The position numbers and the translations under genes are program-made. From Deinococcales bacterium (GTDB lineage: Bacteria; Deinococcota; Deinococci; Deinococcales; JAAFIG01): a stretch of DNA of 64,000 bases. The notes under the pieces are model-generated. The model was not told the origin of the DNA. It did not search any database and saw only the letters and a list, made by a program, of their open reading frames with translations. Location of the stretch: the NCBI GenBank assembly GCA_031414595.1, contig JANNVX010000014.1, forward strand, positions 1 to 64,000, read 5' to 3'. Every line of letters starts with the position of its first letter. The first letter of the stretch is position 1. Shown here piece after piece: positions 39,415 to 59,162 of the stretch.

Positions 39415-39419
39415 GAGCT

Positions 39420-39890: not shown

Positions 39891-40256
39891 ATGTTTACAG
39901 TTCGGTTTAATACTTTACTTCCAATCAGCTTTATCTCGCTTTGCGTTTTAACAATGCTTGGCTTGTTGGTGCGTGGTGTGGATTTCACTCGGTTGCTTGT
40001 GCCAGTGGTTCTTATTTTTGCAAGTTTCCGTGCTTTTTCCGCAGTTTACTTTTCGGTATATATGCAAACAGTTACCTTTAGGATTTCTTTCACGGCAGTT
40101 AAGCCGTTTGAGTTTCACAGTGCAGAAGTGCGTTCAGGGCGCTTGCATTTCTTGGATGCAACAGGTAAAACCCTCCTGAGTGTGGCAACTTGGCTATGTC
40201 GTACTGAGGATGTGAGTGCTTTGGTTAAGCAGTTTCCAGCATCCTCTAAGGAGTAG
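39891..40256 (+). CDS. Small membrane protein, copy 2
   Basis: Paralogue of 38950..39414; AGGAG RBS before ATG 39891. Confidence 0.7.
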   Translation: MFTVRFNTLLPISFISLCVLTMLGLLVRGVDFTRLLVPVVLIFASFRAFSAVYFSVYMQTVTFRISFTAVKPFEFHSAEVRSGRLHFLDATGKTLLSVATWLCRTEDVSALVKQFPASSKE

Positions 40257-40262
40257 GTCTTT

Positions 40263-41453
40263 ATGAATTTACGTTGGTGTGGTTTGACAGTGGTTATGGC
40301 GTTACTGACCGCTTGTCCAGACCCTAATGATCCAAATAAGCCAACTGTGGCTATCACAACCCCTGCTTCGGATGCCACTGTTAGCAATACCATTCCAATT
40401 CAATTGGATGCTGTGGATAATGTTGGTTTGGCTCGAGTCGAAGTTTTTGTGCGTGGTCGTGGTTCAACTCAAATTGGTTTGAATGTGGGTAGTGCCGTCA
40501 GTGCGCCTTTTGTGGTGCAGTGGGATACCACAGGTGTTCCCAACAATACCGAACTCGAATTGGTGGCTCGAGCTTATGATACGGCTGGAAATGAAGGGGT
40601 CAGCACCCCTATCCGCATCAAAACCCAAAATGCAAATCTGCCCAGCCTGACCTTGCTCTCTGGCTATTCGCTTCCCCCAAAACCCGTGCAGTTTGCCAGC
40701 AGCAAGCTCCAAACCCAAAACGTTGCACTTGACTCGGTTTTACCAGCCCATACAACCCGTGTACTCGAGGCTTTAGAAGCCCCCAAGAACCTCTCAGAAC
40801 TTCGCGCTCGAGTTGCCAGCACCTCGGCAGTTATTCGCCCATTGGCATTGACTCGAGACTTGGCGCTGGAATGGGAATGGAGTCCTTTTCAAAGCGTTGG
40901 CAGTATTGCAGGTGCGGATGGTTACGGGATTTTCTTGTCTAAACTGGACATTGCTGGGTCTTATCAGCGCCTGCTGAACCAACAAGCAACAGCTTCTGGC
41001 GCTCAGAAGTTCTCGAAAACATTTTCTGAAGCTCGCACAGGAGATGTCTATTTTGGTTGTGTAACTGCCATTGTGGATAATCGTTCTCGAGAAACACCTT
41101 GTAGTAACGCAGATGCAGCCAAATTCCCACCAGACCAAGATGTGGCAGCACCCGCCGATGGTGCGGTTGTCTCGGATGGTCGCCCAACCCTGACTTGGAC
41201 AGCCACCCCAAATGCAATTGGTTATTTGTATTTGCTCTATGACCGTAACCCTTGGGATGCCAATGCCAAAATTATTTGGCGCAACACCCCAGCTACCCAA
41301 ACCACCGATAAGTTATTGGCAGCTTATCCAAGTGCTTTAGCCCCACTTGCCAAGGGAACTTACTATTGGTGGGTTGCGGGGGTTAGTTTTGATTCGTTTG
41401 GTAAAGCGGATGGTTTTTCGTTTTCTGATCCGCGTACCATCGTTGTGCCTTGA
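40263..41453 (+). CDS. Lipoprotein with bacterial Ig-like domain(s)
   Basis: Lipobox LTAC; PTVAITTP...DNVG..RVE...WDTT...ARAYDTAGN. Confidence 0.8.
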   Translation: MNLRWCGLTVVMALLTACPDPNDPNKPTVAITTPASDATVSNTIPIQLDAVDNVGLARVEVFVRGRGSTQIGLNVGSAVSAPFVVQWDTTGVPNNTELELVARAYDTAGNEGVSTPIRIKTQNANLPSLTLLSGYSLPPKPVQFASSKLQTQNVALDSVLPAHTTRVLEALEAPKNLSELRARVASTSAVIRPLALTRDLALEWEWSPFQSVGSIAGADGYGIFLSKLDIAGSYQRLLNQQATASGAQKFSKTFSEARTGDVYFGCVTAIVDNRSRETPCSNADAAKFPPDQDVAAPADGAVVSDGRPTLTWTATPNAIGYLYLLYDRNPWDANAKIIWRNTPATQTTDKLLAAYPSALAPLAKGTYYWWVAGVSFDSFGKADGFSFSDPRTIVVP

Positions 41454-41466
41454 GTTGGAGTGAATT

Positions 41467-43557: not shown

Positions 43558-43576
43558 GTGCAACCACGGAGGTTAT

Positions 43577-44821
43577 GTGAAGAAATTTTTTGGAATACTC
43601 TTAGTGATGGTCGCAGTTGCTGTAGGCATTGTCAGTCTTGCCGCAGCTTATCCAGCAAAACTCGAAAGTTTCCCTAGTGGATTTAGAATTCGAGCTGAAC
43701 AAAATATTCGTTTTTTTGTGGATTATCAGCAAAAGCAAATCATCGTTCCCGAAGCTCAATTGCCAGAGGGTACAAGTGTGCCATCAGATGCAAAGCTCGA
43801 GTTGCGAGCAGATGGTTTTATCCTAACCCTTTCCTATCCTTTTTCGGTAACGCTCAATCCATCAGGAAAATTGCTGACTATTCTCAAAGACGAACCAAAT
43901 GCTGTGCCTTCTGACGTTCGCATCCCCGTTTTTTACGAGATGCACAATGCCCAAGCATCCCAAGTCGCAGCTATTTTGACCCGTTTGTATCCTGGTTTGA
44001 AAGTTGAAGTTGATGAGCGTCAACGTTCAATCATAGTGCTACTCAGTCCTGCTGACCGTGAAGTAGTTGACCAAGTAATTAAACGCTTAGATGCACCACG
44101 ATTACAAGTCATGTTTGAAGCTGAAATTGTTGAAATAAACCGTAAAATATCACAGCAACTAGGCATAGATTACTCGAGACTTTTTAACCTTAACTTCAAA
44201 TTCAATGAAGGAACTCCACCCAATGGAGTGCTTGGCTTTGCGCCATTTCAACGCAGCCCTCTGTCACTTGAAGTGGGCATTAACCTGCTCAAATCAAACG
44301 GTGTGGCTAGAACACTCACTCGCCCTCGCATTGCCGTTTTGGATGGTCTCGAGGCGCGTATAAATGCTACTCAGACCCAGCCTATTCGCACAGTTGGCTC
44401 TGGTGGACAAGTTACTGTCTCCAATATCACCACAGGTATCAGTCTTCGTTTAGTTCCTAAAGTCGCTCCAGACAAGACCATTGAATCACAACTGAGTATT
44501 GCTGTTTCGTCACCTACAGGTATCTCGAGTGAAGGTTTACCAACCTACAGTACCCGTGAAGCGAGCACAACGGTACGAGTAAAAAATGCTGAGAGTATTG
44601 TTATCGGTGGATTGATCGAATCAAGGCGTAGTACCTCAAGTTCAGGAATTCCGGGGCTTATGGATATTCCAATTCTCGGAGAATTATTCAGAACAACCTT
44701 TACCGAGGAGTCTGACACCGATCTTTTGATTGTTGTTACCCCCTATGTAGTCAATAATGTCTTGCTCCCAGAAACTCCTCCTGCTCCAGAAACTCCTCAA
44801 GAACCACCAAGTCAACCATGA
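43577..44821 (+). CDS. Short secretin (GspD/PilQ-like outer-membrane pore)
   Basis: N3-like VDERQRSIIV, QVMFEAEIVE, RPRIAVLDG, GISLRLVPKV, IVIGGLI, GIPGLMDIPILGELF, LLIVVTP. Confidence 0.9.
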   Translation: MKKFFGILLVMVAVAVGIVSLAAAYPAKLESFPSGFRIRAEQNIRFFVDYQQKQIIVPEAQLPEGTSVPSDAKLELRADGFILTLSYPFSVTLNPSGKLLTILKDEPNAVPSDVRIPVFYEMHNAQASQVAAILTRLYPGLKVEVDERQRSIIVLLSPADREVVDQVIKRLDAPRLQVMFEAEIVEINRKISQQLGIDYSRLFNLNFKFNEGTPPNGVLGFAPFQRSPLSLEVGINLLKSNGVARTLTRPRIAVLDGLEARINATQTQPIRTVGSGGQVTVSNITTGISLRLVPKVAPDKTIESQLSIAVSSPTGISSEGLPTYSTREASTTVRVKNAESIVIGGLIESRRSTSSSGIPGLMDIPILGELFRTTFTEESDTDLLIVVTPYVVNNVLLPETPPAPETPQEPPSQP

Positions 44822-45249
44822 AAAGATTGAATTTGCTTTGGGTTTGTATTGTCTGTCTAATGGCGTGTGCGCCTGCGGTCAGTATTACATTTCAACCTCA
44901 AGTAAATAATCCTCTGACTCAAAAAATGATTGTGGCTTTTAAGGCTGTCTTTACTTATTATCAACTACAAGTTAAAGAACAGGCTTCATATCAATACGAC
45001 GGAACAGATGAACGAGCGTTTCTACTGGCAATTGATCAGTTTTACCTTGCAAATCCAGGTTTTTGTCCAATGAATGATGGATTCCATGTCAATGCAGATG
45101 GCACATTGCAAATGACCTTGGCAGCAAAAAAAGAACAGGTTATTGCTTTCATATATGACCTTCGGAATAAGCCCAAATTTGTTTATGTAATCGTCTCTGG
45201 AATTAGCCAAATTGAACCCCCTACTCGCCCTTGTCGTAACGGAAACTAA
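44818..45249 (+). CDS. Lipoprotein of unknown function
   Basis: Lipobox LMAC; ATGA overlap with the secretin gene. Confidence 0.65.
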   Translation: MKRLNLLWVCIVCLMACAPAVSITFQPQVNNPLTQKMIVAFKAVFTYYQLQVKEQASYQYDGTDERAFLLAIDQFYLANPGFCPMNDGFHVNADGTLQMTLAAKKEQVIAFIYDLRNKPKFVYVIVSGISQIEPPTRPCRNGN

Positions 45250-45257
45250 GGAATAAT

Positions 45258-45959
45258 ATGAAAAAATGGATTGTAATTACCGCTTTAATTGTAGGAACAG
45301 CTTTTGCCTTAGCTCAAAGTAATGGTTTAGCTTTATTCAACAAAGTTCGAGCTATACATGGGGATGCAGCTCTGACTGGACTCAAAACACTCCGAATTAC
45401 AAGTAATGTAGAAAATATTGACTCGGTAGGAAAGGTATCAATCCTTGCAACCCAAGTCGCAATTTACGATTTTGAAAATATGCGTTACAAATTGTTGGTC
45501 AGCACAGGAAATCAAGCTATAGACGGGTATCGAATAACTTCAAATGACTCAACTCAATGGACTCCGAAGGGCATCAAAGCAATCCCAGAAAGTCAAGCAA
45601 ACATCCTGCGGTATACATTTGTTCAAGGTATCCTACCTTTACGCCTCAATCCACAAACATGGACTTCAATCAATCAGACTTCTGGTACTATCGCAGGTTT
45701 GAACGGGGACATATTAACGTTGCAAAGTGCATCACAACGTACTTCATTACTTGTAAATAATGATGGTGAAATTCAGGCACAACGTTTTACCGTAGGCGAT
45801 CAATTTGAGACTGTCTTTGGGGAGTATCAAGTTATTTCAGGAATTCGCTTTGCAACTCGAGAACGATTACTGAGAAACGGGAATTTTGCCATTAGATTAT
45901 CGCATACCAAAATTAATGTTAATCCTTCACTCAATGCTACAGATTTTATTTTGCCGTAA
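45258..45959 (+). CDS. Exported protein, possibly LolA-like/lipoprotein-sorting fold
   Basis: Signal peptide; HGDAAL..LKTL...YQVISGIRF...INVNPSL..TDF pattern. Confidence 0.5.
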   Translation: MKKWIVITALIVGTAFALAQSNGLALFNKVRAIHGDAALTGLKTLRITSNVENIDSVGKVSILATQVAIYDFENMRYKLLVSTGNQAIDGYRITSNDSTQWTPKGIKAIPESQANILRYTFVQGILPLRLNPQTWTSINQTSGTIAGLNGDILTLQSASQRTSLLVNNDGEIQAQRFTVGDQFETVFGEYQVISGIRFATRERLLRNGNFAIRLSHTKINVNPSLNATDFILP

Positions 45960-46590
45960 GAGTTTACTGCTCTAATTGACGGTCTGACTCAGCTTTTCCG
46001 ACTGGTCATTCCAAACACAAAGGGTGGGGCTAGTTTACCCATTTCCTTAAGGTCTGCTTCGATTTCTTCGCGCTGATTGGTTTAGCGTTTAATGCCACTG
46101 GCTTGTAGCACCAATTTGGCATTTAAGTAAGACATAAATTCTCTTTAATCTAATCCCACCGCACAACTGCTTGACCCGTTCCAAATCACTTGTGAAATCA
46201 AGCAACCAATTGTCCATAATAGCTTTCTTCTTTGCCTAGCTTGAATTGGATGTGATGGATTTACGTTATTTATCATAGGTTAGTTGCGAGATTGAGTTCA
46301 CTACAGAGGAATTTATATTGCATTTATAGCCAAATTATATCTTTTTTATGATTTGGCTAATTTCAGTATATTCACTTGAAGCATAGTAAAGTTTACCGCA
46401 CAGTCACATTGAAATCAGCAATTTACTCATGTTCTTGAATCTAATTTCCTCCGCGCCGTTCCCTGTGTACTCACAAGGCAGCAGATTTGATTGGTTTTGG
46501 ACAAATTCTCAAAAGTGAGCGCACCGTAATATGACCCTCGAGATAATCATACATATCTCGAGTCCAAAAAACGCTTCCCGCCTTGCTTTA

Positions 46591-46911
46591 TCACTTCGTT
46601 GTACTCTTTTGACGTTTAGGTGGTAAATGATTTGAAGAAGGTTGTGCCAATAAATCAGATGGCTCAAGACCCATCTTTCGAGCTACTGTGAACAATCGAA
46701 GCAAAGTAGGATTAAACCGCCAGACCTGTTTACTCTCGAGTTGCTGATACCAATTCAGTCCAATGCCCAGTTGCTCGGCTGCCTTTTCTTGTGTCCAACC
46801 CAATTCCAATCTGCGTTGCCGAATGCGACTTTGAATCAATCGCAAGTATTCTGCATCTCGAGAATCTAATTCTCGTAGGAATTCTGTCAGTGCAGTTGAG
46901 CGTTGCGGCAC
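46591..46911 (-). CDS. XRE-family HTH regulator
   Basis: IRQRRLELGWTQEKAAEQLGI...YQQLE...FNPTL. Confidence 0.85.
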   Translation of the reverse strand: MPQRSTALTEFLRELDSRDAEYLRLIQSRIRQRRLELGWTQEKAAEQLGIGLNWYQQLESKQVWRFNPTLLRLFTVARKMGLEPSDLLAQPSSNHLPPKRQKSTTK

Positions 46912-46945
46912 ATTGTTACAATTCGCTTTGCCATCCTCTTAGACA

Positions 46946-46963
46946 ACCCTGTTCAAACAGGGT
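46946..46963. promoter_or_regulatory. Inverted repeat, candidate XRE operator
   Basis: ACCCTGTT-CA-AACAGGGT between the divergent XRE and CSLREA genes. Confidence 0.5.
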
Positions 46964-47045
46964 ATACTAACTTAACCATGACCAGCCAAAGCGTATGTAA
47001 CAGTAATTGGCTTGGGTCAATGAATCGCTAACAAGGTGAAGGGGT

Positions 47046-49043
47046 ATGTTCATGACAAAGCAGAAAAAATGGTTTCTGGCACTCGGTATTGGAATCTTGG
47101 CAATCGCAGTGGCGCAAAGTCCTTCATACACCTTTAGCATTGCTGGTCGTAATGTCAAGTTAAGCACCCTCGAACAAAAGAATCAAGTCTTTGTGAACAT
47201 CACCGAACTTGGCAAAGCAATGGGTTTTGGCGTGACCATTGACCAAAAGAAACGCACCGTTGTCCTCAGCAATACCTCGAGTGCCGTTGCCAGACTCACC
47301 CCACCTGTCAATCCCAATGCTCCAATCCAAGTCAATACCCTCACTGATACCCCAGATGCCAAACCAGGTGATGCCATTTGTGCCGATAGCCTAGGACAAT
47401 GCAGCTTAAGAGCCGCGATTCAAGAAGTGGTGGCACAAAAACGAACTCGAGATATTCGAGTACCCAATGGAACCTATACCCTCGAGCGAGGCGCGTTCAA
47501 TATCCCAGCCCAAAATGCTGCTTTCCAAGTCCGTATTCGCGGTGAGAACAAAGACAGCACCATCATCAATGCTGATGGACGAGACCGTGCTTTTGTGCTG
47601 AATGCAGGGCAGAAGTTGCTTCTCGAGAACTTGACCATTCGTAATGGGTCAACCACGGAGTCAGGTGGGGTGATCGCCATTCTTGGATATGGCAGTGGTA
47701 CAAACTCGGCTTTAACCCTCAAATCAACCAAATTCTTTGCCAACAAAGCCGGTGGGAGCGGCGCAGTGATCGCTGTTCTACAAGAGTATGGCAGTGTTTC
47801 AATTGACATCAGTCAATCTGAGTTTAGTGGTAACAGTGCCAGTAAAAATGGAGGGGCAATATCCGCAGTCATCGGTCAAGAGCCTACCAGCTTAACCATT
47901 GACAACTCAGTCTTTATTGAGAACTCGAGCCTTGGCAGTGGCGGAGCAATTCAAACCAATGGAAATCTGAAAATCACCAAATCGCAGTTTCTAAAAAATG
48001 AATCCAGTGGTGGTGACGGCGGGGCAATCTCGAGTCGCGGTTCAACCAACTTCAGTGATGTCACAATGGATGGCAATTCAGCTTCAAATGGTGGTGCGGT
48101 CTTTATTGGTAGAGATCAGAAAAACGTTTCATTTGAAAATACACGCTTTTTGAACAATACAGCCACCAGCAATGGTGGGGCGTTATTTATTGATATGCAA
48201 AGTGCCTTTAATATGACTAAATCAGCATTTACTGGCAATACCAGTAAAAACTCAGGTGGAGCAATCTTTGTTTCCAACAGCAATAACATCAGCATCGCTG
48301 AAACGAATATCTCCGCCAATCAAGCTCAGACCCAAAGTGGTGGTGGTATTTTTGTTGCCAGTACCAGTCAAATGGCTGTACGCAAGAGTCAGATTTTTGG
48401 CAATACTGCTACTGAAATGGGTGGTGGAATTTACATTCAACCTCAAGTATTCCAAGGATTATCACCGATTGTCACGATTGACAGCATAAGTCTGTACCAG
48501 AATCGAGCCAAGAACGGGGCGGGAATATACTCGGCTGGAAACCTAACCATTCAAAACAGTACCGTTTCACAAAACATAGCGTCCAATCAAGGTGGTGCAG
48601 TTTTCAGTGGAGAATCTCCTGAATCTCCACTAGCGCCAATTCTCGTTCTAACCAGTTCAACCTTTTACGATAACCAAGCAGGGGATACGAATGCTAACCA
48701 AGTTTACTCAAAGCAAAAATTCACAACTCGCTCGAGTCTGTTCTACAACAGCCAAGGCAAGAACTGCAATGCGCCAGAAGTGATTAGCCTTGGCTACAAC
48801 ATCGCTTCGGATGACAGTTGCAAATTGACTGGAAAAGCTGACCAGAACAATACTGACCCCAAACTCGGACTCCTAGCTGACAATGGTGGTGGTCTCTTGA
48901 CCCATCTGCCAGTGGTTGGTTCACCAGCCATTGATGTCGTGCCACTGAACACCTGTGAAGCTCGAGACAATCGTGGGGTGGTTCGGCCTCAAGGTGCAGC
49001 TTGTGATGTTGGGGCAGTTGAGCGCAGTCCAACGGATAAATAA
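47046..49043 (+). CDS. Secreted CSLREA-domain beta-helix protein (Pmp-like GGAI repeats, choice-of-anchor Q-like end)
   Basis: Signal peptide; CSLRAAIQE; repeated FxxN...GGAI; DPKLGLLADNGG...GSPAID...CDVGAVE. Confidence 0.85.
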   Translation: MFMTKQKKWFLALGIGILAIAVAQSPSYTFSIAGRNVKLSTLEQKNQVFVNITELGKAMGFGVTIDQKKRTVVLSNTSSAVARLTPPVNPNAPIQVNTLTDTPDAKPGDAICADSLGQCSLRAAIQEVVAQKRTRDIRVPNGTYTLERGAFNIPAQNAAFQVRIRGENKDSTIINADGRDRAFVLNAGQKLLLENLTIRNGSTTESGGVIAILGYGSGTNSALTLKSTKFFANKAGGSGAVIAVLQEYGSVSIDISQSEFSGNSASKNGGAISAVIGQEPTSLTIDNSVFIENSSLGSGGAIQTNGNLKITKSQFLKNESSGGDGGAISSRGSTNFSDVTMDGNSASNGGAVFIGRDQKNVSFENTRFLNNTATSNGGALFIDMQSAFNMTKSAFTGNTSKNSGGAIFVSNSNNISIAETNISANQAQTQSGGGIFVASTSQMAVRKSQIFGNTATEMGGGIYIQPQVFQGLSPIVTIDSISLYQNRAKNGAGIYSAGNLTIQNSTVSQNIASNQGGAVFSGESPESPLAPILVLTSSTFYDNQAGDTNANQVYSKQKFTTRSSLFYNSQGKNCNAPEVISLGYNIASDDSCKLTGKADQNNTDPKLGLLADNGGGLLTHLPVVGSPAIDVVPLNTCEARDNRGVVRPQGAACDVGAVERSPTDK

Positions 49044-49140
49044 CTTTACTTTTGCAGTTAAAAGGCGGAAAATGACTCGAGACTCCTCGAGATTTTGTCG
49101 CTACGGCAATGCGTTCTTAACACAACTGGATGGTTAAACC

Positions 49141-49584
49141 ATGCAAGCATTTATTCCCACAAGACCAGCACCCGCTCCACCAAGAGTATCACTGCTTGGA
49201 CTAAAAGCCACAACCATTTTAGAGGTTGGTGAAGCAGTCGAAAACGGTTTTGCCACAAGCCTTGTCAAGCGGTTTGCTTCGCATATCAATGCTTCGTTGC
49301 AAGATACACTCAAACTGCTGGATATAAGCAAACGCACTTTTCACCAATACCAACGCCATAAAAAGCCTCTGAGCCGAAGTGTAAGTATCAATGTGCTTCT
49401 CTTAGCCCAAATCACAGAGGCAGCCGAGCAGTATTTTGAAGATAAAACCAATGCCCATGCTTGGCTTGCCACACCTCGAACTACTTTTGGAGGCACGACA
49501 CCTCTTCAGTTCAGTCTGCTGCCCAATGGGGCTGAATACGTTAGAGCCGTGTTGAACAAACTCGAGCATGGGGTTGTTACGTGA
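49141..49584 (+). CDS. Xre/MbcA/ParS-type antitoxin (no RES toxin seen)
   Basis: ISKRTF...LS...FED...AWLATP...FGGTTPL...LEHGV. Confidence 0.82.
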   Translation: MQAFIPTRPAPAPPRVSLLGLKATTILEVGEAVENGFATSLVKRFASHINASLQDTLKLLDISKRTFHQYQRHKKPLSRSVSINVLLLAQITEAAEQYFEDKTNAHAWLATPRTTFGGTTPLQFSLLPNGAEYVRAVLNKLEHGVVT

Positions 49585-49724
49585 AATTTGTTTCTGCAAC
49601 GCGTTTTCAAATAGAAGTAAGCTCAACAATGGCAACTCGGGAAGCATGGATGTCCGAGCAACCCTTTTGGAGTGTCACAGTATAGCCCTAACGAAAAGTT
49701 GGGCTTTACCTGTTGAATCATTGC

Positions 49725-50132
49725 CTAAGCGTCTTCCTCATCTCTAAGCTCTCGAGTGAATATGTTGGATTCGCAATCAATTGGATGAAGACCTATGAAT
49801 TCTGCATAATCAATGTCGTTCTTTTCAAGGTTTTGGTGTTCGTTTTTATGGACTCCATTTAATCCTTCATCCAACATCCGAGCCAAATCCTCGACTTTCC
49901 CGCCCCGCTCCTTGAGAAGACGACAAAATTCTTGCCTGCCGATTGATTTTACCAAATCATCCCTATCAAAGAGCATCGCTGCGTATAATCTTGGTTCTGG
50001 CATAAAGGTTTTGTCGTGACTTGAGAATGCAATCAGGTCATAGTTAAGGTCACTTCTTTCACGAATCGCCACAAGACGCTTCCCGTACAGGTAAAAATGT
50101 GTGTTTTTCGGTAACATTGTTGCCATCCTCAT
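49725..50132 (-). CDS. Hypothetical protein
   Basis: Open frame; no motif recognised. Confidence 0.45.
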   Translation of the reverse strand: MRMATMLPKNTHFYLYGKRLVAIRERSDLNYDLIAFSSHDKTFMPEPRLYAAMLFDRDDLVKSIGRQEFCRLLKERGGKVEDLARMLDEGLNGVHKNEHQNLEKNDIDYAEFIGLHPIDCESNIFTRELRDEEDA

Positions 50133-50298
50133 GCACTTGTAGAAAAGAACCTTGCAGCACCACCACAACCAAATCCCAACGACCACCAATGCTCAAAAAT
50201 CACGATTATGACTACTCAAGTAGGAAACGATACTATTGAGGTCATGCTGTGATGATTGATTTCAAACCAAAAGTAAATCATGAAACCACAAATAATCA

Positions 50299-50688
50299 CT
50301 ACCTACCACGGTATCCAAAAACAAAAGCTGGAACTGGCTTGCTCATCGTCTCAAAGTCGGCTTTGACCTGTTGCCTATGATTGGTCTGACGGGTGCTACC
50401 AGTGGGTTGCAATTGGTCTATCCAAAGTTCCAAAGCATCTTCTGGTGAGTCTTCGTAAACCTCGAGTATTTTAGGTTCGGTCGGTTTGATGCTATCCCAA
50501 TGGATGTACCGATGTAAGCGTTGTAAATGCTGTTCTGGACTTTGACTCGAGGCAATCAGTCCAAGCATGTGTGATTCCTCGAGCATGATTGAACCTGCTT
50601 CTTCGCTTCTTAGAAGTTGCAGTAATTTACTGGTGTAGTCACGCCAGACTGTGTTGACTTCACGTTTTTGACGGTTTCTTTGGCTCAT
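50299..50688 (-). CDS. Hypothetical protein
   Basis: AGGAG RBS before MSQRNRQ; last gene of a minus-strand operon. Confidence 0.55.
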   Translation of the reverse strand: MSQRNRQKREVNTVWRDYTSKLLQLLRSEEAGSIMLEESHMLGLIASSQSPEQHLQRLHRYIHWDSIKPTEPKILEVYEDSPEDALELWIDQLQPTGSTRQTNHRQQVKADFETMSKPVPAFVFGYRGR

Positions 50689-50741
50689 ATGATTTACTCC
50701 TTTTACACATCTTTTGCTTGTAGTTGCTTTTATTTGAGAAA

Positions 50742-51086
50742 TTATCCAAACTTCCTTTGAACCAAACGCCAGCACAAAGTGACCATCAGACCAGCGAATA
50801 GAATCACTGCCCAACTTGGTAATTGCAGAATCACCGCCAAGCTGTATGAGTAAACCCCAGCACAAAAGGTTAAAGACCAGACCAATGGAATTTTGGCAAA
50901 TAATTGTAGAAACGCATCAAGATTATGCCCATAGTGCTTCTCGAGCAAGAATAGGATGATGGCAAAGACCATCAGGCTCGAGACAAGACAAAGCCCAATT
51001 GAGGCATTGACAGTCACGAGTAATCTTGTTGTCAAACCTCCAGCCAGAACTGCAAAAACAAGCAACTCGAGGTGAACCCTTTTCAT
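50742..51086 (-). CDS. Small membrane protein
   Basis: About four hydrophobic segments; ATGA overlap. Confidence 0.55.
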   Translation of the reverse strand: MKRVHLELLVFAVLAGGLTTRLLVTVNASIGLCLVSSLMVFAIILFLLEKHYGHNLDAFLQLFAKIPLVWSLTFCAGVYSYSLAVILQLPSWAVILFAGLMVTLCWRLVQRKFG

Positions 51087-51436
51087 GGTGTCTCCAAGTT
51101 CGCCTTGCCAAAAAACCGAGTATTCATTTGTTCTCGTAACCGATGATTCTCAAGGGTGAGTTTACCAAGTAAGCGCTCGAGTAGGATTTCTTGGGCTTTT
51201 GATCGCTCGAGTTGTTTTTGTAGATTCAAATTCTCGGTCTCGAGTAAACCAGATTGTTGTTCTGAACTAATAAAAGCATCATTACCAAAGCGTTCATATA
51301 AAGCTCGCCAAGAAAATAAGGTTGAAGCTAGGATTTTATGTTCTCGAGCCACAGCACTAGGTCGTTTGTGTTGTTCAATGACTTCCTTGACCATTCGCAA
51401 CTTAAATTCGGGGGTGTATAACTTTCGGTTTTTCAT
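51083..51436 (-). CDS. HTH_Tnp_1 (IS3 OrfA-like) DNA-binding protein
   Basis: RKLYTPEFKLRMV...VAREHKI..STLFSW...LERLLGKLTLEN. Confidence 0.75.
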   Translation of the reverse strand: MKNRKLYTPEFKLRMVKEVIEQHKRPSAVAREHKILASTLFSWRALYERFGNDAFISSEQQSGLLETENLNLQKQLERSKAQEILLERLLGKLTLENHRLREQMNTRFFGKANLETP

Positions 51437-51903
51437 GGTCTAGTCCTTACATTAAATGTAATCGTGTGAATCACGGTATCTTTTGTATCTCGAGGAAGTT
51501 CAGTAAGCTCTAATTGATGCTCGTTATTTAGGGTAAAAGCTATGGTGATTCGGCTTTTGGTTAAAGTCCATCCATCACTATTTACAGCACTTGATTCAAG
51601 AACTTGTAAAAAAGTGGTTAGAGCTTTCTCAAAGGTCGTCATAAATTGGGGGATTGGTGTTCCAAAATCATTAACAGTAAAACTTTGGCTATCCACTGAA
51701 AATTCAATGTGTACAAGTTCTTCCTTGGTGGTTACGCTGGTTGCAAGGTTTAGTTCGCTTGCTTTTCGGGTTTTGCTTGCTTTATCGAGATAGAACGCCC
51801 ATGTCACTTGGGTGATCTGAATTCTTGTGCCTAAAAGGTTATAGGTGTGCGCTATATTGAAGGTGCTTTGTACCGCACCAAGATAATCAATGGGCTGGTT
51901 CAT
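51433..51903 (-). CDS. Hypothetical protein
   Basis: ATGA-coupled within the operon. Confidence 0.55.
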   Translation of the reverse strand: MNQPIDYLGAVQSTFNIAHTYNLLGTRIQITQVTWAFYLDKASKTRKASELNLATSVTTKEELVHIEFSVDSQSFTVNDFGTPIPQFMTTFEKALTTFLQVLESSAVNSDGWTLTKSRITIAFTLNNEHQLELTELPRDTKDTVIHTITFNVRTRP

Positions 51904-52619
51904 TCTCGTGTCCCTAAGCCTAACTCGAGACCATCATCCAAAAGATGGTTTTCATGCTCGTTAGTTAAATTTTCCTCGAGAATAACTTTGCGTTTCATGG
52001 GTGGAATCCATTTCTTCCAATGCTCTGGGATTTCTAATCGCATTGGCTTGAGATTTTGAGCAATTAAGAAACCATGCTCGAGAACCCCAGTCATGTGTAG
52101 ATACCGAGCATCTTCGACCAAATTCAGTAAATCGAGGGTGGTTTTAGCACTGACCACAAATGGTTCTATTTTTTTGTTGTCTGGTGGGTAAACTCGCAGC
52201 AATACTAATTTCTCAGCTCGGTCTAAACGGAGGACTTTGCCAGCCGCACTCCAGAAGGTATCAGCACCATTCAAATCAACGGCATTCTCGAGGGGCATGA
52301 CTCGAGCCAAGGTGAGGTTGGCTAAGCGTTGGTCTTTGAAGGTCTTGCCGTACAACGTGGCTCTCCAAGTACCAGAGAGTTGGATTGAAGACTGTTCAGG
52401 GTGGGTGTTGCGCCACCTCGAGAAAACCCTTGGGTGAACTCGAGCGATGTAAGTACCATTTTTTGGATTGCCAAGTTGAATGGTGACTCGAGTGTTTTGC
52501 TGGTCATCTTGGATGGTGGCATTGGCTTGGATGAAGAAATGGTGGTTATAGTCGGTGTGAATACCTTTTGGCATTGGCTGTGGTGTGGTTACAAGAGTTT
52601 CAAAAACGTCATTTGACAT
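51900..52619 (-). CDS. Hypothetical protein, paralogue of 52652..53272
   Basis: Shared WSA.G...D...LV..RVYP...PF..SA...H..G.L...LEIP..W..W; GGAG RBS. Confidence 0.65.
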   Translation of the reverse strand: MSNDVFETLVTTPQPMPKGIHTDYNHHFFIQANATIQDDQQNTRVTIQLGNPKNGTYIARVHPRVFSRWRNTHPEQSSIQLSGTWRATLYGKTFKDQRLANLTLARVMPLENAVDLNGADTFWSAAGKVLRLDRAEKLVLLRVYPPDNKKIEPFVVSAKTTLDLLNLVEDARYLHMTGVLEHGFLIAQNLKPMRLEIPEHWKKWIPPMKRKVILEENLTNEHENHLLDDGLELGLGTRE

Positions 52620-52651
52620 GCTATCTCCTATTCACGGGTTTCTTATCGTCT

Positions 52652-53272
52652 TTAGTTGGCTTTCCAGTTGCGCCAACGATCAGGAATTTCTAAATCTTGA
52701 TTGGTTAATACTTCTGCAACAAGCTTTTTGCCACTTAAGTTCCCTATCAAATGGACAAACTCATTTTTTCTTGGCAACTCTTGTTCTACTTTCAAACTGG
52801 CTGAAATCAAAAATGGCGTGGCTCGAGCTTGCTCAGGGTAAACCCGAATCGTGACCAATCGGTGTATTGGGTCACTTTTGGTGATTTGTCCAATAGCACT
52901 CCATCGCGGCTGGTGGGAATCTTCTCGTTCTAACTCGAGGGGTTCAATACGATGTAGGTGAAGTGGTTCAAACAGCACACTATCGTTCAAAGTGCGGAAA
53001 TGAAGCGTACATAACCACCAACGATGACTTGCTGGGTTGAGCCTTAACACATCTGCACTGGCTTTAACCCGAAGCATGGTGCTATCGGAGAGTTGGATGT
53101 CCATATTGTTACCGCTCCCTGAATCGTAAATACAAGCCGCCACTCGCATAAAAGCATGGCATCCATCAGGAATAGGAAAATCAAAAGTGAGTTTTCGTGG
53201 GGTAGTGGTCAATGGTCTGCCTCGAGCTTGGATTTTGTGACTGGTCATAAGAAATGCCACCTCTGTACACAT
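52652..53272 (-). CDS. Hypothetical protein, paralogue of 51900..52619
   Basis: Same shared C-terminal motif set. Confidence 0.65.
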   Translation of the reverse strand: MCTEVAFLMTSHKIQARGRPLTTTPRKLTFDFPIPDGCHAFMRVAACIYDSGSGNNMDIQLSDSTMLRVKASADVLRLNPASHRWWLCTLHFRTLNDSVLFEPLHLHRIEPLELEREDSHQPRWSAIGQITKSDPIHRLVTIRVYPEQARATPFLISASLKVEQELPRKNEFVHLIGNLSGKKLVAEVLTNQDLEIPDRWRNWKAN

Positions 53273-53443: not shown

Positions 53444-53671
53444 ATGCCTCGCTTTGCGGTAGACCCAGAGATAATACGTGTTCGCATTCGTCAATTACGA
53501 CTCGAACAGGGTTTAACCCAAGATGAAGTAGCAGCCCGAAGTGGAATCAACGAAAAGCACTATCAAGACCTCGAGACGGGAAGGAAAGCCTTTAATCCTA
53601 CTCTCGAGACCCTCAATGCTTTTGCTTTGACCTTTGAAGTGGAACTGGCTGTCCTTCTAAAATCGGAGTAA
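53444..53671 (+). CDS. XRE-family HTH regulator upstream of the tniQ-cas operon
   Basis: IRQLRLEQGLTQDEVAARSGI..KHYQDLETG..FNPTL. Confidence 0.88.
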   Translation: MPRFAVDPEIIRVRIRQLRLEQGLTQDEVAARSGINEKHYQDLETGRKAFNPTLETLNAFALTFEVELAVLLKSE

Positions 53672-53838: not shown

Positions 53839-54798
53839 GTGTTTCATATGATTGAAACTGCCAAAAACCCACACTGGGCAATCCACCCTCAAATCCAAAA
53901 TGGTGAGTTGTTTGAATCTTGGATTGTGCGGTTGAGTGCCGAAAATGGCTTTCGCCTGCGCGAAGTGATACAGCAATTAGAACTCAAAAATGTCTTTTGT
54001 TCTAAAAACAATGTTGAGATCAAAGCCGTAAGAAAATTGTCGGATGCAACTGGGATACTTCAATATCGAATCCTCGAATCCCATCTTGGGTGGCTTCAAA
54101 ATCACTCTGATCTTGCCTATGCAAAAACATTTACCCTTTGGGGGCGTAGCCCATCGGACACGATACAGCATTTTAAGTTTTGCCCAGACTGTTTTGCTAA
54201 TCAAGACAAGCCACACATACTGCTTGACTGGGCATTTGAAATCACTCAGTTCTGCACGGTACATCAACGACCTTTACTCGAGCGTTGTCCAAAATGCCGC
54301 GAGCCACTTCAGTTTAGTTTGCTTTTCAACAAAACAATACAACCCGAAATCTGCTCTAATTGCAGCACAAAAATGAAAATCCATGCTCGGAAACACAGCA
54401 TTGATTTCAAATTTGGTCTCGAGCTACAAAGACAAATCTTGAGCCTCCGAAAACATGACCAAGTATCACCAAAACAATCACGAATTATCCCAGCAAAAAC
54501 GTTTTTATCAATTGTTGAGCGGATATTTTATCGCTTTACCAATTTACCCAACCAGCAAACCTTCTCTAAATTGACTGATCTCTCAGTTATGTTGCTGGAT
54601 GATCGTTTTTCGCAAGCGTACCGAAGAATAAACGCCCTGACCATTTGTGGCTGGCTTTTAGCCGACCCAATAGTACGAATTATTACTCTGCGCCAATTCA
54701 CGCAAAAGTATGTTGAATACTCGACGGCTATTCAAATTATTTCTGTTCTGAATTATGCACAAGCGACATTGCAACCACGTAATGGAACTTACCAATGA
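53839..54798 (+). CDS. tniQ: TniQ target selector
   Basis: HPQIQNGELFESWIVRLSAENG; zinc motifs FCPDC, W...CTVH..PLLERCPKC, CSNC; ATGA overlap with cas5. Confidence 0.92.
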   Translation: MFHMIETAKNPHWAIHPQIQNGELFESWIVRLSAENGFRLREVIQQLELKNVFCSKNNVEIKAVRKLSDATGILQYRILESHLGWLQNHSDLAYAKTFTLWGRSPSDTIQHFKFCPDCFANQDKPHILLDWAFEITQFCTVHQRPLLERCPKCREPLQFSLLFNKTIQPEICSNCSTKMKIHARKHSIDFKFGLELQRQILSLRKHDQVSPKQSRIIPAKTFLSIVERIFYRFTNLPNQQTFSKLTDLSVMLLDDRFSQAYRRINALTICGWLLADPIVRIITLRQFTQKYVEYSTAIQIISVLNYAQATLQPRNGTYQ

Positions 54799-55529
54799 GC
54801 TTATTTGCACTCGAGGTTTGGGGCGATTACGCCTGTTTCACACGTCCTGAAACAAAAGTTGAAAGACTTAGTTACCCTGTGATGACTCCAAAAATTGCTC
54901 GAGCAATTTTTGGAGCGATCTACACCCAGTTTTCTGGGGGTGAAACACCTCACACAACTTTTTTCTGGCAAGTCAGGCGAATCGAAATCCTCAATCCAAT
55001 TGTGTTTATTTCGTTCTCACACAATGAAGTCAAAGGGAGAGCAAGCACTTACAACATTTTGCGCTCAGTTCATCAGCCCGACGCACTTCAACCGCTCATG
55101 GCAGATGGCAATGATGATTCCAGCAAAGAGACTGGGCGCACCCAACGCCAATCAATGATTTTGCGCGAGGTGCGTTATCGGATATTCGCTGAACCAGTGC
55201 TGTACAATCCAAACCAAAGCAATCTGAAGCAAATCACCCACGAATTTGCTCGACGTGCAGCCAAAGGCAAGTGTTTCCATCAGCCTTTTTTGGGATGCCG
55301 TGAATACATAGCATTTTTCCAGCCAGTTCCGCCCACATTTGGCGTTGGCGCACCGATTTTTGAAGATATTGGTTGGATGATCTACGATACGTTTGATCTA
55401 TCACAGCCAAGCTCAATCACCATTACACCAAGCATTAGTATCTTCAGGGCGACGATTCAAAACGGTGTTCTCGAGATACCGCCGTATGATAGCAACGAGG
55501 TACGCAAACTAGGACTGGGAGTGATTTGA
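54795..55529 (+). CDS. cas5c: Type I-C Cas5 (Cas5c/Cas5d)
   Basis: WGDYACFTRPETKVERLSYPVMTP, RTQR..ILREVRY and GKCFHQPFLGCRE motifs. Confidence 0.95.
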   Translation: MSLFALEVWGDYACFTRPETKVERLSYPVMTPKIARAIFGAIYTQFSGGETPHTTFFWQVRRIEILNPIVFISFSHNEVKGRASTYNILRSVHQPDALQPLMADGNDDSSKETGRTQRQSMILREVRYRIFAEPVLYNPNQSNLKQITHEFARRAAKGKCFHQPFLGCREYIAFFQPVPPTFGVGAPIFEDIGWMIYDTFDLSQPSSITITPSISIFRATIQNGVLEIPPYDSNEVRKLGLGVI

Positions 55530-57343
55530 TGCTCGAGGCTCTGATCGAATATGCTCACCGAAAACAATTGGTTCTCGAGCCTGGTTTTGCTGGCAGGCGT
55601 ATTCATTGGTTAATAAATCTTGACTCTAAAGGACAGGTTCAATCCGTTTCTTTTGCAGATGAATCCAAGCGACGAGCGAAGTTGTTTCCATGCTGTCCAG
55701 ACCTGCAACAGCCCCAACTGATCAGGCTGCCACATGTACTTAAACAGCTTGGAATACTATCAACACGAGCAGCCCACTTTTTAATGGATTCATGTTGTCG
55801 TGTGGTGCTTTATCCAGATAACGATCAGTTGGAACAACATAAGACTTTTCTAAACCTAATCCAACTAGCAAGCCAAGAAGTTAGGATATTACGACCAGTT
55901 GCAAAAATGCTTTCAAAGCAAAAGGAAATTGGTCGAGTACATCAAGCCCTCATTCAATTGAAAGCCACAAAAACCGACAAAGTATCGTTTTCGGTGGATG
56001 GAGTGGTCATACTTGAGGATACAACGTGGCATGATTGGTGGCGAAGATTTTATATAACCACAAGCTCAAAGCAAAATTCAGATCGTATGATCAGTCTGGT
56101 TTCAGGAGAAGTTATTTCGCCTGCCAGAACACATCCAGCGCTTAAATCCTTGGTCGAAAAAAAAGTAACTTTTGGAGCGGCAGTAGTGGCTGTGCATAAA
56201 ACTGCCTTTACCTCATATGGGCTAAAACAAGCCGAACACGCCGCCATGTCAGGAGCATCTGCCGCTGCCTATCATGCAGCTCTGGAAGATTTATTGAGAC
56301 AAACTAGGATGGTTCATGGTACGAAAGCGGTGTATTGGTACAACCAAGAAATTCCACTACAATCCGACCCACTGGCGCTGATGTTGCGCGATGAACGCAT
56401 AGATAACATCAACTACCGAAAACAGCTTGAGGATATTCTTTCACAAGCTCGAAAAGATGATTCTCGAGATGTTGCTTGCCATATTGCTGTGTTGCGTGAA
56501 AATGAAAATCGGGTCAGGATTTCATTGTACAAAACGCTGCGATTGAGTGAAGTGGCGGCTGGACTTATTAAATGGCTCGAGGATACTTCAATTGATGGTT
56601 TGGCAGGTACTGGTTTCGTAGTTGATCTACCCAGCGAATTTGCTGGTATGTTTCGTCAACGAGTTGGGGGAAAAAGCGATAAGGCACTTGACTTTCAACC
56701 ACTACTGATTGTGTTGTACCAGCAGATGCTCAACCCCACTCTACCCATTGCGATGGCTCTGGTTGATTATTCACTTAAATCGGTCATTACCAGCTTTGTA
56801 AAAGGCAAATTTCAGGCAGCATTTGCAACCAAGGCAGATTTACCATTGCGACAAAATTTGGTGATTTACATGGGTATTTTGAAAGCATTTTGCCGTCACT
56901 CAGGTGATCGAGACCTATTGCAACAACTGAATCCTAATCATCCTAATTCACACTATCAAACAGGTCGGCTCACTGCGATGCTCGAGCGTATTGATGGGTT
57001 GAATAATCCTCCACATGTTGAACTCAAAAACCAAAGGTTGTTTTTGCAAATTATGACGACACCGAACAATATCCTGCAAGAAAAAATGGCTTCCAGTCAA
57101 CGAAAGCTCAAGCGACTTGAAAGAACTCGACGATGGTTCAGCCTATACTTACAAAAAGAAATGAATACGATTTGGGAGAATCTTGATGCTAAGGTTCGGA
57201 GTAATAGCTCAGTAAAACGCCAATGCTTATTCCTATTGGGTTACTTTCAACAAACCATTTCTCAATTGATTGAACCTGTGCAAAACGATGATTTTTACAA
57301 TTTGGAGTCGAGAACCTTTAAGGAGCAACATGAAACCGATTGA
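55526..57343 (+). CDS. cas8c: Type I-C large subunit Cas8c (Csd1), divergent
   Basis: MLEALIEYA...EPGF...W.I.LD..G, LVSGE...ARTHP, AFTSYGLKQ, YQTGRL.A.LE, Q..FLLGYFQQ. Confidence 0.88.
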   Translation: MMLEALIEYAHRKQLVLEPGFAGRRIHWLINLDSKGQVQSVSFADESKRRAKLFPCCPDLQQPQLIRLPHVLKQLGILSTRAAHFLMDSCCRVVLYPDNDQLEQHKTFLNLIQLASQEVRILRPVAKMLSKQKEIGRVHQALIQLKATKTDKVSFSVDGVVILEDTTWHDWWRRFYITTSSKQNSDRMISLVSGEVISPARTHPALKSLVEKKVTFGAAVVAVHKTAFTSYGLKQAEHAAMSGASAAAYHAALEDLLRQTRMVHGTKAVYWYNQEIPLQSDPLALMLRDERIDNINYRKQLEDILSQARKDDSRDVACHIAVLRENENRVRISLYKTLRLSEVAAGLIKWLEDTSIDGLAGTGFVVDLPSEFAGMFRQRVGGKSDKALDFQPLLIVLYQQMLNPTLPIAMALVDYSLKSVITSFVKGKFQAAFATKADLPLRQNLVIYMGILKAFCRHSGDRDLLQQLNPNHPNSHYQTGRLTAMLERIDGLNNPPHVELKNQRLFLQIMTTPNNILQEKMASSQRKLKRLERTRRWFSLYLQKEMNTIWENLDAKVRSNSSVKRQCLFLLGYFQQTISQLIEPVQNDDFYNLESRTFKEQHETD

Positions 57344-58295
57344 AAATCGCTACGAATTTCTACTCATTTTTGATTGCGAAAATGGCAATCCCAATGGTGA
57401 TCCCGACGCAGAAAACCTTCCAAGAATAGACTCCCAAGACGGTCATGGATTGGTCTCTCCAGAATCAATCAAACGAAAGATTCGTGACCGTATTGCCCTG
57501 AATGGTATAGAAATCTTTATCCAACACCAAACCAATCTCAATCGTGCGATTTTTGCGGCGCGTGAACAGAGTAATACCTTAAAAGACAAATCCACCAAGA
57601 TAACATTACAAAACGCCGCTGCAATTATGTGTAAACGATTTTATGATGTTCGGACTTTCGGTGGGGTAATGACTACAGGTGTCAATTCAGGTCAATTGAC
57701 TGGACCTGTGCAGATTACATTAGCTCGCAGTGTTGACCCAGTTCATATCATGGATTGGGGAATTACTAGAGTGGCTGTTGCCGAAACTGTCCAAGGAGCA
57801 AAAACCCTGGCTGACTACGAACAATGGGAATCCGAACAAAATGCTTCAGATTTAAGAACTATGGGACGGAAAAGCCTGATTCCATATGGATTATTCGTAG
57901 CCAAAGGCTGCATCAGTGCGTTTGATGCGGAAAGAACAGGGTTTTCAGAAGCTGACCTCGAATTGCTCTGCGAAAGCATGTTAGACATGTTTGAACACAG
58001 TCGCAGTGCCAGTCGTGGTTTGATGACCACAAGGCGCTTGGTAATTTTTAAGCATATAGGATCATCCAAAGACCCCAAAGTGCGCCTCAAACAAGCTAAA
58101 CTAGGGCGTATTCCAGCACAAAATTTGCTCGAGTTAGGCAGAATTGTTCGCATTTCTCGCGTCAATAAAGATGCTTTTCCTCGAGCCTATCACGATTACG
58201 ACGTGGTTGTGGATACCAGTGCATTACCAGAAACCATTGAAGTGCTGGATTTAGATTTGTGGGATGAAGAAAAGTTTCGCTCGGCTTGGGTTTAA
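57330..58295 (+). CDS. cas7c: Type I-C Cas7 (Csd2)
   Basis: NRYEF..FDCENGNPNGDPDAENLPRID, KRKIRD, FYDVRTFG.VM, GPVQ, TMGRK..IPYGL, TGFSE.DL; AAGGAG RBS. Confidence 0.96.
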   Translation: MKPIENRYEFLLIFDCENGNPNGDPDAENLPRIDSQDGHGLVSPESIKRKIRDRIALNGIEIFIQHQTNLNRAIFAAREQSNTLKDKSTKITLQNAAAIMCKRFYDVRTFGGVMTTGVNSGQLTGPVQITLARSVDPVHIMDWGITRVAVAETVQGAKTLADYEQWESEQNASDLRTMGRKSLIPYGLFVAKGCISAFDAERTGFSEADLELLCESMLDMFEHSRSASRGLMTTRRLVIFKHIGSSKDPKVRLKQAKLGRIPAQNLLELGRIVRISRVNKDAFPRAYHDYDVVVDTSALPETIEVLDLDLWDEEKFRSAWV

Positions 58296-58467: not shown

Positions 58468-58645
58468 GTCTCAATGGCATCTAGCCGTCGAGACGCTTGA
58501 AACCAAACCCGACGAAAGGATGCACATTACGATAATCCGTCTCATGGGCATCTAGCCGTCGAGACACTTGAAACATTGCCATCTAAAGTCCAATCACATA
58601 CATTGGCATGTCTCTATAGCTTTTAGACATTGCGATGCTCGAGAT
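58468..58645 (+). CRISPR. Mini CRISPR array: 2 intact plus 1 degenerate 36-bp repeats, two 35-bp spacers
   Basis: R1 58468-58503 GTCTCAATGGCATCTAGCCGTCGAGACGCTTGAAAC; R2 58539-58574; R3 58610-58645 (24/36 identical to R1). Hairpin GTCTC..GAGAC and TTGAAAC 3' end. Confidence 0.9.
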
Positions 58646-58750: not shown

Positions 58751-58808
58751 GCCTCAACGGTACTTAGCCATCGAGACGCTTGAAACTAACCAATTGACCT
58801 ATATGCCC
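58751..58808 (+). CRISPR. Delocalised atypical repeat plus tRNA-targeting homing spacer
   Basis: Repeat GCCTCAACGGTACTTAGCCATCGAGACGCTTGAAAC (58751-58786). Spacer TAACCAATTGACCTATATGCCC matches the minus strand of 59086-59107 at 18/22. Confidence 0.88.
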
Positions 58809-58892
58809 GAATTTATTTTTTCCAAAGCCTCTTGTTCCAGATATGCGGAGGTCAAAGCCAAAAGGTTTGCTTGAAAGGAGTATTGGGATCAC

Positions 58893-59038
58893 TGACACGG
58901 TAAACGATAAGAAATGATATAGAATTTAACTCGAGTTCGTTAAACACAATGTTTATTTAGGAAAGTTCAATCAGTGCCACGGTAAACGATATTGACATTC
59001 ATAAAAATAATTACTGACAAAGTAAACGATAATTCACA
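58893..59038 (-). repeat. tRNA-proximal transposon end with TnsB-binding sites
   Basis: TGACACGGTAAACGATAA (58893), TGCCACGGTAAACGATAT (58975), degenerate copy (58993), TGACAAAGTAAACGATAA (59015), ending AATTCACA. Inverted relative to the sites at the other end. Confidence 0.92.
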
Positions 59039-59043
59039 CCTAT
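59039..59043 (+). repeat. Target-site duplication, right copy (CCTAT)
   Basis: Identical to 10215-10219. Confidence 0.93.
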
Positions 59044-59072
59044 TTGCCAAATGTGCATTTTACGGTTAATCT
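59044..59072 (+). promoter_or_regulatory. Candidate tRNA promoter
   Basis: TTGCCA-N17-TAATCT, 13 bp upstream of the tRNA. Confidence 0.6.
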
Positions 59073-59085
59073 AGGGGTCGTGCGA

Positions 59086-59162
59086 GGGTCTATAGCTCAA
59101 TCGGTTAGAGCGGAGGTCTCATAAACCTTAGGTTCGGGGTTCAAGTCCCCGTGGACCCACCA
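59086..59162 (+). tRNA. tRNA with CAT anticodon (Ile2 or elongator Met)
   Basis: Acceptor stem GGGTCTA/TGGACCC, anticodon arm GAGGT-CTCATAA-ACCTT, GGTTCAAGTCC T-arm, encoded CCA. G1-C72 pairing argues against initiator fMet. Confidence 0.95.

Follow-up and report, generated by a model that had tools for sequence, protein, structure and literature searches.

Nine type I-C CASTs have been described by Rybarski et al. 2021 (10.1101/2021.08.16.456562), in which tniQ lies beside tnsABC and for which, in the account given of these loci, no array, self-targeting spacer or attachment site was found. Putative I-C CASTs without arrays were also noted by Hu et al. 2024 (PMC11300857), and the I-C CAST is listed as a variant by Makarova et al. 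2025 (PMC12669027), where Rybarski 2021, Faure 2023 and Hsieh and Peters 2023 are cited jointly for I-D, I-C and IV-A; the term 'I-C' has no match in the main text of either Faure 2023 (PMC10293859) or the Hsieh and Peters review (PMC11406308). Guide categories have been established in I-F3 and V-K CASTs (PMC11406308; 10.1101/2021.02.06.429022), and short homing spacers were reported by Rybarski et al. for I-F3c and I-B4, the I-F3c spacer measuring 20 bp and lying ~64 bp from the end. Across the literature searched, subscription papers aside, no description was found of an I-C CAST with a homing guide, including in the accessible text of PMC11656645, PMC10910872 and PMC8649781.

The window analysed here, i.e., the whole stretch of 64,000 nucleotides, contains an element of 48.8 kb (10220-59038), which begins with TGTGAAT, ends with ATTCACA and is bordered on either side by the target-site duplication (TSD) CCTAT (10215..10219 on the left, 59039..59043 on the right). 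Its left end (10220..10368, + strand) bears TnsB-site-like repeats, while its right end (58888..59038, +) bears three such repeats of 22 nt. The TG..CA ends, the repeated TnsB sites and the 5-bp TSD are those of a Tn7-like transposon, as is the combination of a TnsB transposase, a TnsC ATPase and a TniQ-family selector. The left end is occupied by a tnsAB fusion (10399..12864, +; 821 aa from the ATG), whose product matches Pfam TnsA-N, rve and Mu-transpos_C, each weakly and below cut-off, is 47-62% identical to its sister proteins and returned no match in the PDB, and by the AAA+ ATPase gene tnsC (12854..13681, +; Pfam TniB, E 2.5e-31; VchTnsC, E 3e-7). At the right end are found an Xre-family HTH gene (53444..53671, +; Pfam HTH_3, E 3e-11), which is a possible regulator, followed by tniQ (53851..54798, +; 315 aa; PF06527, E 4.5e-16), the sole TniQ/TnsD gene found in the element when the window was scanned with a profile of 15 TniQ proteins. 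The operon continues with cas5c (54795..55529, +; TIGR01876, above cut-off), cas8c (55526..57343, +; Pfam Cas_Csd1, E 2e-57; TIGR01863, 152 bits, below the cut-off of 218.65) and cas7c (57330..58295, +; TIGR02589, above cut-off), after which come an array and a separate repeat-spacer unit.

The cas5c-cas8c-cas7c operon, the lack of cas6, a hairpin repeat ending in GAAAC and a TTC-type PAM identify the system as type I-C, and the presence inside the element of Cascade genes without Cas3 or Cas1, together with a minimal array, is characteristic of a CAST. Within the window, the Cas3, Cas4 and Cas1 proteins of the host gave no tblastn match, none of the 46 ORFs scanned matched Cas12 (the V-K hallmark Cas12k is missing, and a class 1 Cascade is present), and the I-F families (Cas8f/Cas5f, Cas7f, Cas6f) were not matched, the cas genes falling in I-C families only. 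An internal ATG behind AAAGGAG, from which Cas11 would start, occurs in the cas8c gene of three of three Cas3-bearing relatives; it is missing from all four CAST cas8c genes considered below (window ~56915-56935), two of which have a TTG one codon later.

The boundaries of the element are corroborated by a genome of the same genus, G005, which represents the empty site: the left flank, a single CCTAT, the right flank and an identical tRNA follow each other there, with 98% identity over the 161-bp flank-plus-tRNA stretch. Furthermore, in run X6 (public contigs from another study), the right end stops at 59038 and is followed by a different flank of ~45 nt and then by the same tRNA, giving a PAM-to-TSD distance of ~62 bp as inferred from two overlapping loose ends. 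The flank in run X5 is 2 nt shorter as well, and run X1 is not independent of the window.

The element shares with the I-C CASTs of Rybarski et al. the Tn7-like core, TniQ, Cas5c, Cas8c and Cas7, and the lack of Cas3 and Cas1. It is set apart from those nine loci, as they were described, by its layout: tniQ heads the cas operon ~40 kb from tnsAB-tnsC rather than lying beside tnsABC, TnsA is fused to TnsB, and the element has a mini array and a delocalised guide as well as TSDs and a known empty site.

The ~39-kb cargo (13863..53272), located between tnsC and the Xre-tniQ-cas end, encodes an RNase H, an EAD1/double-GTPase cluster, SIR2, a TPR-NTPase, an Rhs protein, SMI1/KNR4, a subtilase, a secretin and an Xre antitoxin, and also contains an IS fragment. 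The region from 15650 to 25511 comprises GAP1-N1/EAD1, two double-GTPases, GASH, EAD1-SIR2 and a TPR-NTPase, and resembles a conflict or defence system. The region from 27187 to 39800, in which an Rhs protein of 3646 aa with a pretoxin HINT domain and a weak WHH nuclease tip is followed by SMI1/KNR4 and by small ORFs in duplicate, has the appearance of a polymorphic toxin-immunity locus, while genes for an Ig-domain protein, a subtilase and a secretin form a single run at 40263-45959.

The mini CRISPR array (58468..58645, +) consists of two 35-nt spacers and 36-nt repeats ending in GAAAC (starting at 58468 and 58539), with a degenerate third repeat at 58610. The array still gains spacers, because runs X5/X6 and X9 hold leader-end spacers that differ from those of the window. 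Targets of the two ordinary spacers were found neither in the host genome (at up to nine mismatches) nor in the 364 genomes of the phylum; plasmids and phages gave chance-level matches only (E 1-4), and viral contigs gave no exact masked match. Elsewhere, the host genome encodes a complete type I-C system with Cas3, whose Cas7 is only 39% identical to that of the element. A gene flanking the element has its best matches within the plasmid collection in Deinococcus (59-63%), making the host a probable member of Deinococcota. The host genome also contains a second TniQ-like gene, of 410 aa, located ~2.5 kb away from a CRISPR array with 21 repeats of a different type (G000:C101:44-5153), as well as a run of 27 tRNA genes that all lie on the same strand and recall the tRNA arrays of plasmids or phages (G000:C56:144-4674).

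The separate repeat-spacer unit begins 105 bp past the degenerate third repeat. Its 36-nt repeat (58751..58786, +) differs from repeat 1 at six positions (seven in a 37-nt scan) and has a weakened hairpin (about -4.9 vs -14.9 kcal/mol) with an intact 3' GAAAC. The homing spacer (58787..58808, +), located directly 3' of this repeat, matches over 22 nt a tRNA gene with CAU anticodon (59086..59162, +; anticodon CAT; non-initiator, elongator Met or Ile2), which serves as the attachment site. The protospacer lies on the minus strand (59107-59086) and is preceded by the 5' PAM CTC (59110-59108), so defining a target at 59086..59110. The initial annotation had placed mismatches at positions 6, 12, 18 and 19 next to this PAM, had the match ending at the first base of the tRNA, and had put the TSD 42 bp beyond the match and 64 bp from the PAM; recomputation reproduced all of these values and the protospacer coordinates, with the tRNA starting at 59086. 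A possible tRNA promoter, TTGCCA-17-TAATCT (59044..59072, +), was recognised by eye, the scanner having not flagged it; since this candidate begins right after the TSD, insertion would leave the promoter intact. For the guide itself, the promoter scan flagged none, candidates being seen by eye only.

An identity of 18/22 does not by itself single out the tRNA site in the 4.49-Mb genome: a second site with four mismatches (at 3, 8, 14 and 21) is present on C62, where a YTC PAM is lacking. When the sixth positions are masked, the tRNA site alone in this genome has at most one mismatch, the next best having three. None of 3000 shuffled window guides fitted the 150-nt flank as well, and the chance of three of four mismatches landing on 6, 12 and 18 is 0.0026. 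Among orthologous tRNAs, of which 13 of 16 were in register (two in G018 and one in G013 were left out), positions 6, 12 and 18 mismatch in 13/13, and the window guide differs from the tRNAs of G007, G008 and G012 at these three positions only. Position 19 would form an rG:dT wobble; selection for this wobble was rejected, as the base matches 5 of the 13 in-register orthologues and thus reflects divergence of the host.

Close relatives of the TniQ protein were found in three other genomes (G010, G014 and G004) among 364 of the phylum searched, all belonging to the family of the host. Each sister TniQ heads a cas5c-cas8c-cas7c operon with a four-repeat array, and each element possesses a separate altered repeat. 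In G010 this repeat lies downstream of the array, the G014 copy is on the opposite strand close to the right end, and that of G004 is found upstream of tniQ. With the guide register fixed by the 3' end of the repeat, the G010 guide matches over 23 nt the 3' end of a sugar ABC permease gene (PAM TTC, 62 bp to the TSD CGATG; mismatches at 3, 4, 5, 6, 18 and 21), the G014 guide matches over 20 nt tRNA-Leu(GAG) (PAM TTC, 61 bp to ACAAA; mismatches at 6, 9 and 18), and the G004 guide matches over 24 nt tRNA-Arg(CCT) (PAM CTC, 60 bp to TTGGT; mismatches at 6, 12, 14, 16, 17 and 18). In the case of G004, the protospacer was worked out beforehand from the spacing and the guide was located afterwards. 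The sister left ends beside tnsAB bear the same 5-mers, CGATG, ACAAA and TTGGT; they reside on contigs other than those of the cas modules and are linked to them by matching TSDs and end sequences only. The number of shuffled guides reaching the observed score was 0, 4, 0 and 25 of 3000 for the four guides (0 for the window guide), and among the four flanks the best fit of each guide is to its own. The PAM-to-TSD distance is 60-64 bp in 4/4 elements, consistent with the fixed-distance insertion of CASTs. The comparison thus covers four elements with context, which as kin are not independent, although their guide sequences are unrelated. Co-variation of spacer and attachment site, which the initial annotation had named as a check on sister elements, is indeed observed: both change together in 3/3 sisters, with a YTC PAM and a distance of 60-62 bp.

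These four guide-target pairs bear directly on two other explanations of the spacer. Homing might be achieved by protein only, the tRNA gene being read by a TnsD-like factor in the manner of I-B2 and I-D CASTs, with the spacer a vestige or a chance match. Homing to tRNA genes by TnsD is the rule in cyanobacterial CASTs with fused TnsAB (PMC9881144), and the host genomes contain other, longer TniQ/TnsD genes that might act in trans. The I-B2 and I-D elements (PmcCAST, McCAST, CyCAST) indeed share with the window element the fused TnsAB, tRNA attachment sites and a type I Cascade, but a second protein, TnsD, homes them ~29-33 bp past the 3' end of the tRNA. In contrast, the window element, in which a second TnsD was sought (the sisters being in pieces), has one 315-aa TniQ without a long C-terminal extension and no TnsD was found in it; furthermore, insertion follows the PAM, lying upstream of one tRNA but, for two others, at the 3' end or past it. 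The targets are four unrelated sequences (the 3' ends of two tRNAs, the 5' end of another and a protein gene), each with its own guide, the same spacing and drift at sixth positions, which renders homing by protein only very unlikely. Alternatively, the guide might regulate the tRNA, either through Cascade bound at its 5' end or as antisense RNA, without selecting a site. The window crRNA would be complementary to the tRNA and its target is close to the promoter; the guides of G004, G010 and G014, however, have the sense sequence, and all four targets lie at a fixed distance from the insertion point, which leaves a purely regulatory function with hardly any credibility.

Several further observations were made on the sister loci. 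In G004, a second copy of tRNA-Arg(CCT) with upstream sequence is present inside the element, just past the array (G004:C136, L016:367-443), and differs from the homing guide at two additional seed positions. In G014, the left end directly adjoins an older sister element at the right end of the latter (G014:C421, L083:2460-2560), and the new TSD overlaps the last bases of the older element. The same site has thus received a tandem insertion, displaced outwards by 3 bp, which suggests that target immunity may be weak. The host genome contains a 1.1-kb sister remnant (G000:C17:43422-44544, L037) with a truncated tnsA, two repeats with one spacer and a mutated left end; also present are a separate repeat and a guide that matches clpP in part at its 5' end, with the register shifted by 2, a TTC 61 bp from the end and no TSD.

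The G004 element has an apparent frameshift in tnsC and an IS5-like insertion ahead of its array. Such decay, together with the degenerate 1.1-kb remnant at the host clpP gene, would agree with homing by RNA in the past and an element that is now inactive, its guide being a fossil. For the window element this is improbable, given that its genes are open and of full length, its ends and TSD are perfect, the 98% identical empty site and the independent X6 flank argue for recent movement, and the leader-end arrays differ between strains. It is very probable, at the level of sequence, that the spacer functions as a short, delocalised guide for the homing of a type I-C CAST, as the initial annotation had proposed; strong support comes from the empty site of G005 and from the guides that change with their attachment sites in 3/3 sisters. 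Against RNA-guided homing stand the mismatches seen in the current hosts, i.e., those at 3-6 in the seed of G010 and six within 24 nt in G004.

The distribution of mismatches follows the known geometry of Cascade, in which every sixth crRNA base is flipped out (PMC12774636). Across the four elements, mismatches occur at 10 of 13 positions that are multiples of six and at 9 of 76 elsewhere (Fisher p 4e-6), and several of the latter vanish against orthologous targets in other genomes. For example, the G010 guide differs from its target at 3, 6 and 18 in G009 and at 3 and 6 in G013, while positions 14 and 16 of the G004 guide match most relatives, in which position 4 then differs; in these comparisons, three of ten permease rows (G014, G016 and G018) and the G003 tRNA row were left out, having picked another place. 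The proposal that only the pairing positions have been preserved is thereby supported, whereas selection for the mismatches themselves need not be invoked: a mismatch frequency of 77% at sixth positions is approximately that of drift to saturation. In these natural guides, the every-sixth-base rule is visible as genomic drift.

Type I-C systems prefer a TTC PAM, and their crRNA is processed by Cas5c (10.1101/2022.06.15.496202). The PAM is TTC in two and CTC in two of the four elements, and the CTC of the window target is fixed by the tRNA D-arm in 13/13 in-register orthologues. The suggestion that a non-canonical PAM protects from autoimmunity, a form of PAM-based privacy, is therefore unsupported and was abandoned. 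Avoidance of the host Cas3 by means of the short match is, however, plausible, because the host possesses a full I-C system. As regards truncation, the end of the match at tRNA base 1 does not demonstrate it when considered alone and was discarded as proof; it is the G004 and G010 guides, in which matching stops at 23-24 nt while the conserved target continues, that suggest truncation.

A serious though less probable alternative is RNA-guided homing with an untruncated crRNA, in which a full-size Cascade would form, the 3' part of the RNA would remain unpaired and the complex would set the distance. No downstream repeat, terminator or conserved hairpin marks the 3' end of the guide, neither a terminator nor a second repeat being present at 22-24 nt, and in both the window and G014 the end of the match coincides with that of the conserved tRNA. 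Moreover, the PAM-to-TSD distance does not rise with match length (64, 62, 61 and 60 bp for matches of 22, 23, 20 and 24 nt), and the I-D hotspot lies at ~75 bp for any spacer length (PMC9881144). Conversely, the conserved targets of G004 and G010 extend beyond the point at which matching stops, and 60-64 bp is shorter than the ~75 bp of I-D and resembles the ~64 bp of the 20-bp I-F3c guide. On balance, a short mature crRNA with a mini-Cascade is slightly favoured as the form of the guide complex, in which case full-length spacers would insert roughly 12 bp further out. It should be noted that shortening the spacer of the I-D McCAST by 12 bp greatly reduced transposition (PMC9881144) and that PAM-distal mismatches block transposition in I-F3 (PMC12774636); a short R-loop is thus not generally enough.

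By every sequence test the element is a CAST, and its family would appear to work in the manner of I-F3 and V-K homing. With I-F3 it shares a single TniQ preceding the cas operon, guide categories, an atypical repeat, tolerance of mismatches and a nearby Xre gene; I-F3, however, has an I-F Cascade with Cas6 as the dock for TniQ, a dinucleotide PAM, a homing spacer flanked by repeats and mostly four fixed att genes, whereas in the present family Cas6 is absent, the PAM is YTC, the guide is not followed by a repeat, and the att gene differs among all four elements. A truncated, separately placed guide directed at diverse tRNA genes is common to this family and to V-K (10.1101/2021.02.06.429022), although V-K relies on a single Cas12k with tracrRNA, a truncated repeat, a 17-nt mostly perfect match and a GTN PAM, and lacks TnsA, in contrast to the full-length altered repeat, the 20-24-nt match and the sixth-position mismatches found here. 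V-K, initially pointed out as a precedent for a short guide, is not the only one, I-F3c and I-B4 providing others. What is new, judged from these loci, is I-C CASTs with apparent RNA-guided homing to varied sites and a layout unlike that of published I-C loci.

The following sequence of events is proposed. The atypical repeat-spacer unit would be transcribed and its repeat cut by Cas5c to yield a 5' handle, whereupon Cas5c-Cas8c-Cas7 would bind the YTC PAM and form an R-loop of 20-24 bp with every sixth base unpaired, these bases being consequently free to drift. TniQ at the PAM-distal end would recruit TnsC, and TnsAB would insert the element 60-64 bp from the PAM, producing a 5-bp duplication, with the right end oriented towards the target; in the window this point lies immediately upstream of the probable tRNA promoter. 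The 35-nt spacers of the ordinary kind, acquired in trans, would direct jumps into mobile DNA. The parts of this mechanism that we infer are transcription, the length of the crRNA and the docking of TniQ.

The four CAST Cas7 proteins form a clade (support 100/98), which adjoins complete I-C systems that include Cas3 and come from the same family (85/81, a weak placement) and is far from the host's own system, while the four TnsAB proteins group together (92/97) among Tn7-like transposases of the phylum. No cas match was found in the stretches around the Tn7-like relatives (40 kb for G056, ~5 kb for the others), and the tree pattern fits one local capture. The closest transposon without a cas match (G056:C1:1161000-1189100, L079-L080; TnsAB 47-48%) encodes two long TniQ/TnsD proteins, the gene for the first adjoining tnsC and that for the second lying ~24 kb away, and is a candidate for the protein-guided ancestral state.

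Thirteen TniQ-family proteins, at 50% clustering, reach an E value of 1e-30 or better, and scores fall from 182 bits (12th) to 129 (13th) and 101 (14th); this drop, together with the number of proteins, indicates a family that is small yet larger than the four elements with context, ~10 further relatives being known from protein sequence alone. A TniQ alignment search detected no more family members among contigs from metagenomes or viruses, one ordinary Cas3 system was all that a Cas7 scan of genome contigs returned, and none of the 79 metagenome Cas7 loci examined (of 80, one being left out) had a TniQ. The elements represent a Cas6-free CAST family, probably in Deinococcota. In its fullest form, a proposal for which we consider the evidence evenly balanced, the family would derive from an undescribed, independent capture of an I-C Cascade by a Deinococcota clade of Tn7-like transposons with fused TnsAB, giving a Cas6-free CAST of six proteins in which guide length picks the pathway: a 20-24-nt crRNA without a 3' hairpin would assemble a mini-Cascade, possibly without Cas11, that recruits TniQ-TnsC and not the host Cas3, and the attachment site could be freely rewritten between tRNA and protein genes.

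A 2024 review (PMC11406308) names I-F3 as the only CAST group known outside cyanobacteria, and the CAST of the window is found in a different phylum. I-C CASTs have so far been known from nine metagenomic loci, with the homing route left open; the ends, TSDs, empty site, arrays and four natural guide-target pairs presented here make the question of I-C homing directly testable. In I-F3 and I-B2, TniQ contacts Cas6; type I-C has no Cas6, and the docking of TniQ must therefore differ from that in I-F3 and I-B2. With three cas genes plus TniQ, TnsC and a fused TnsAB, these elements would rank with the most compact of the programmable integrases of type I.
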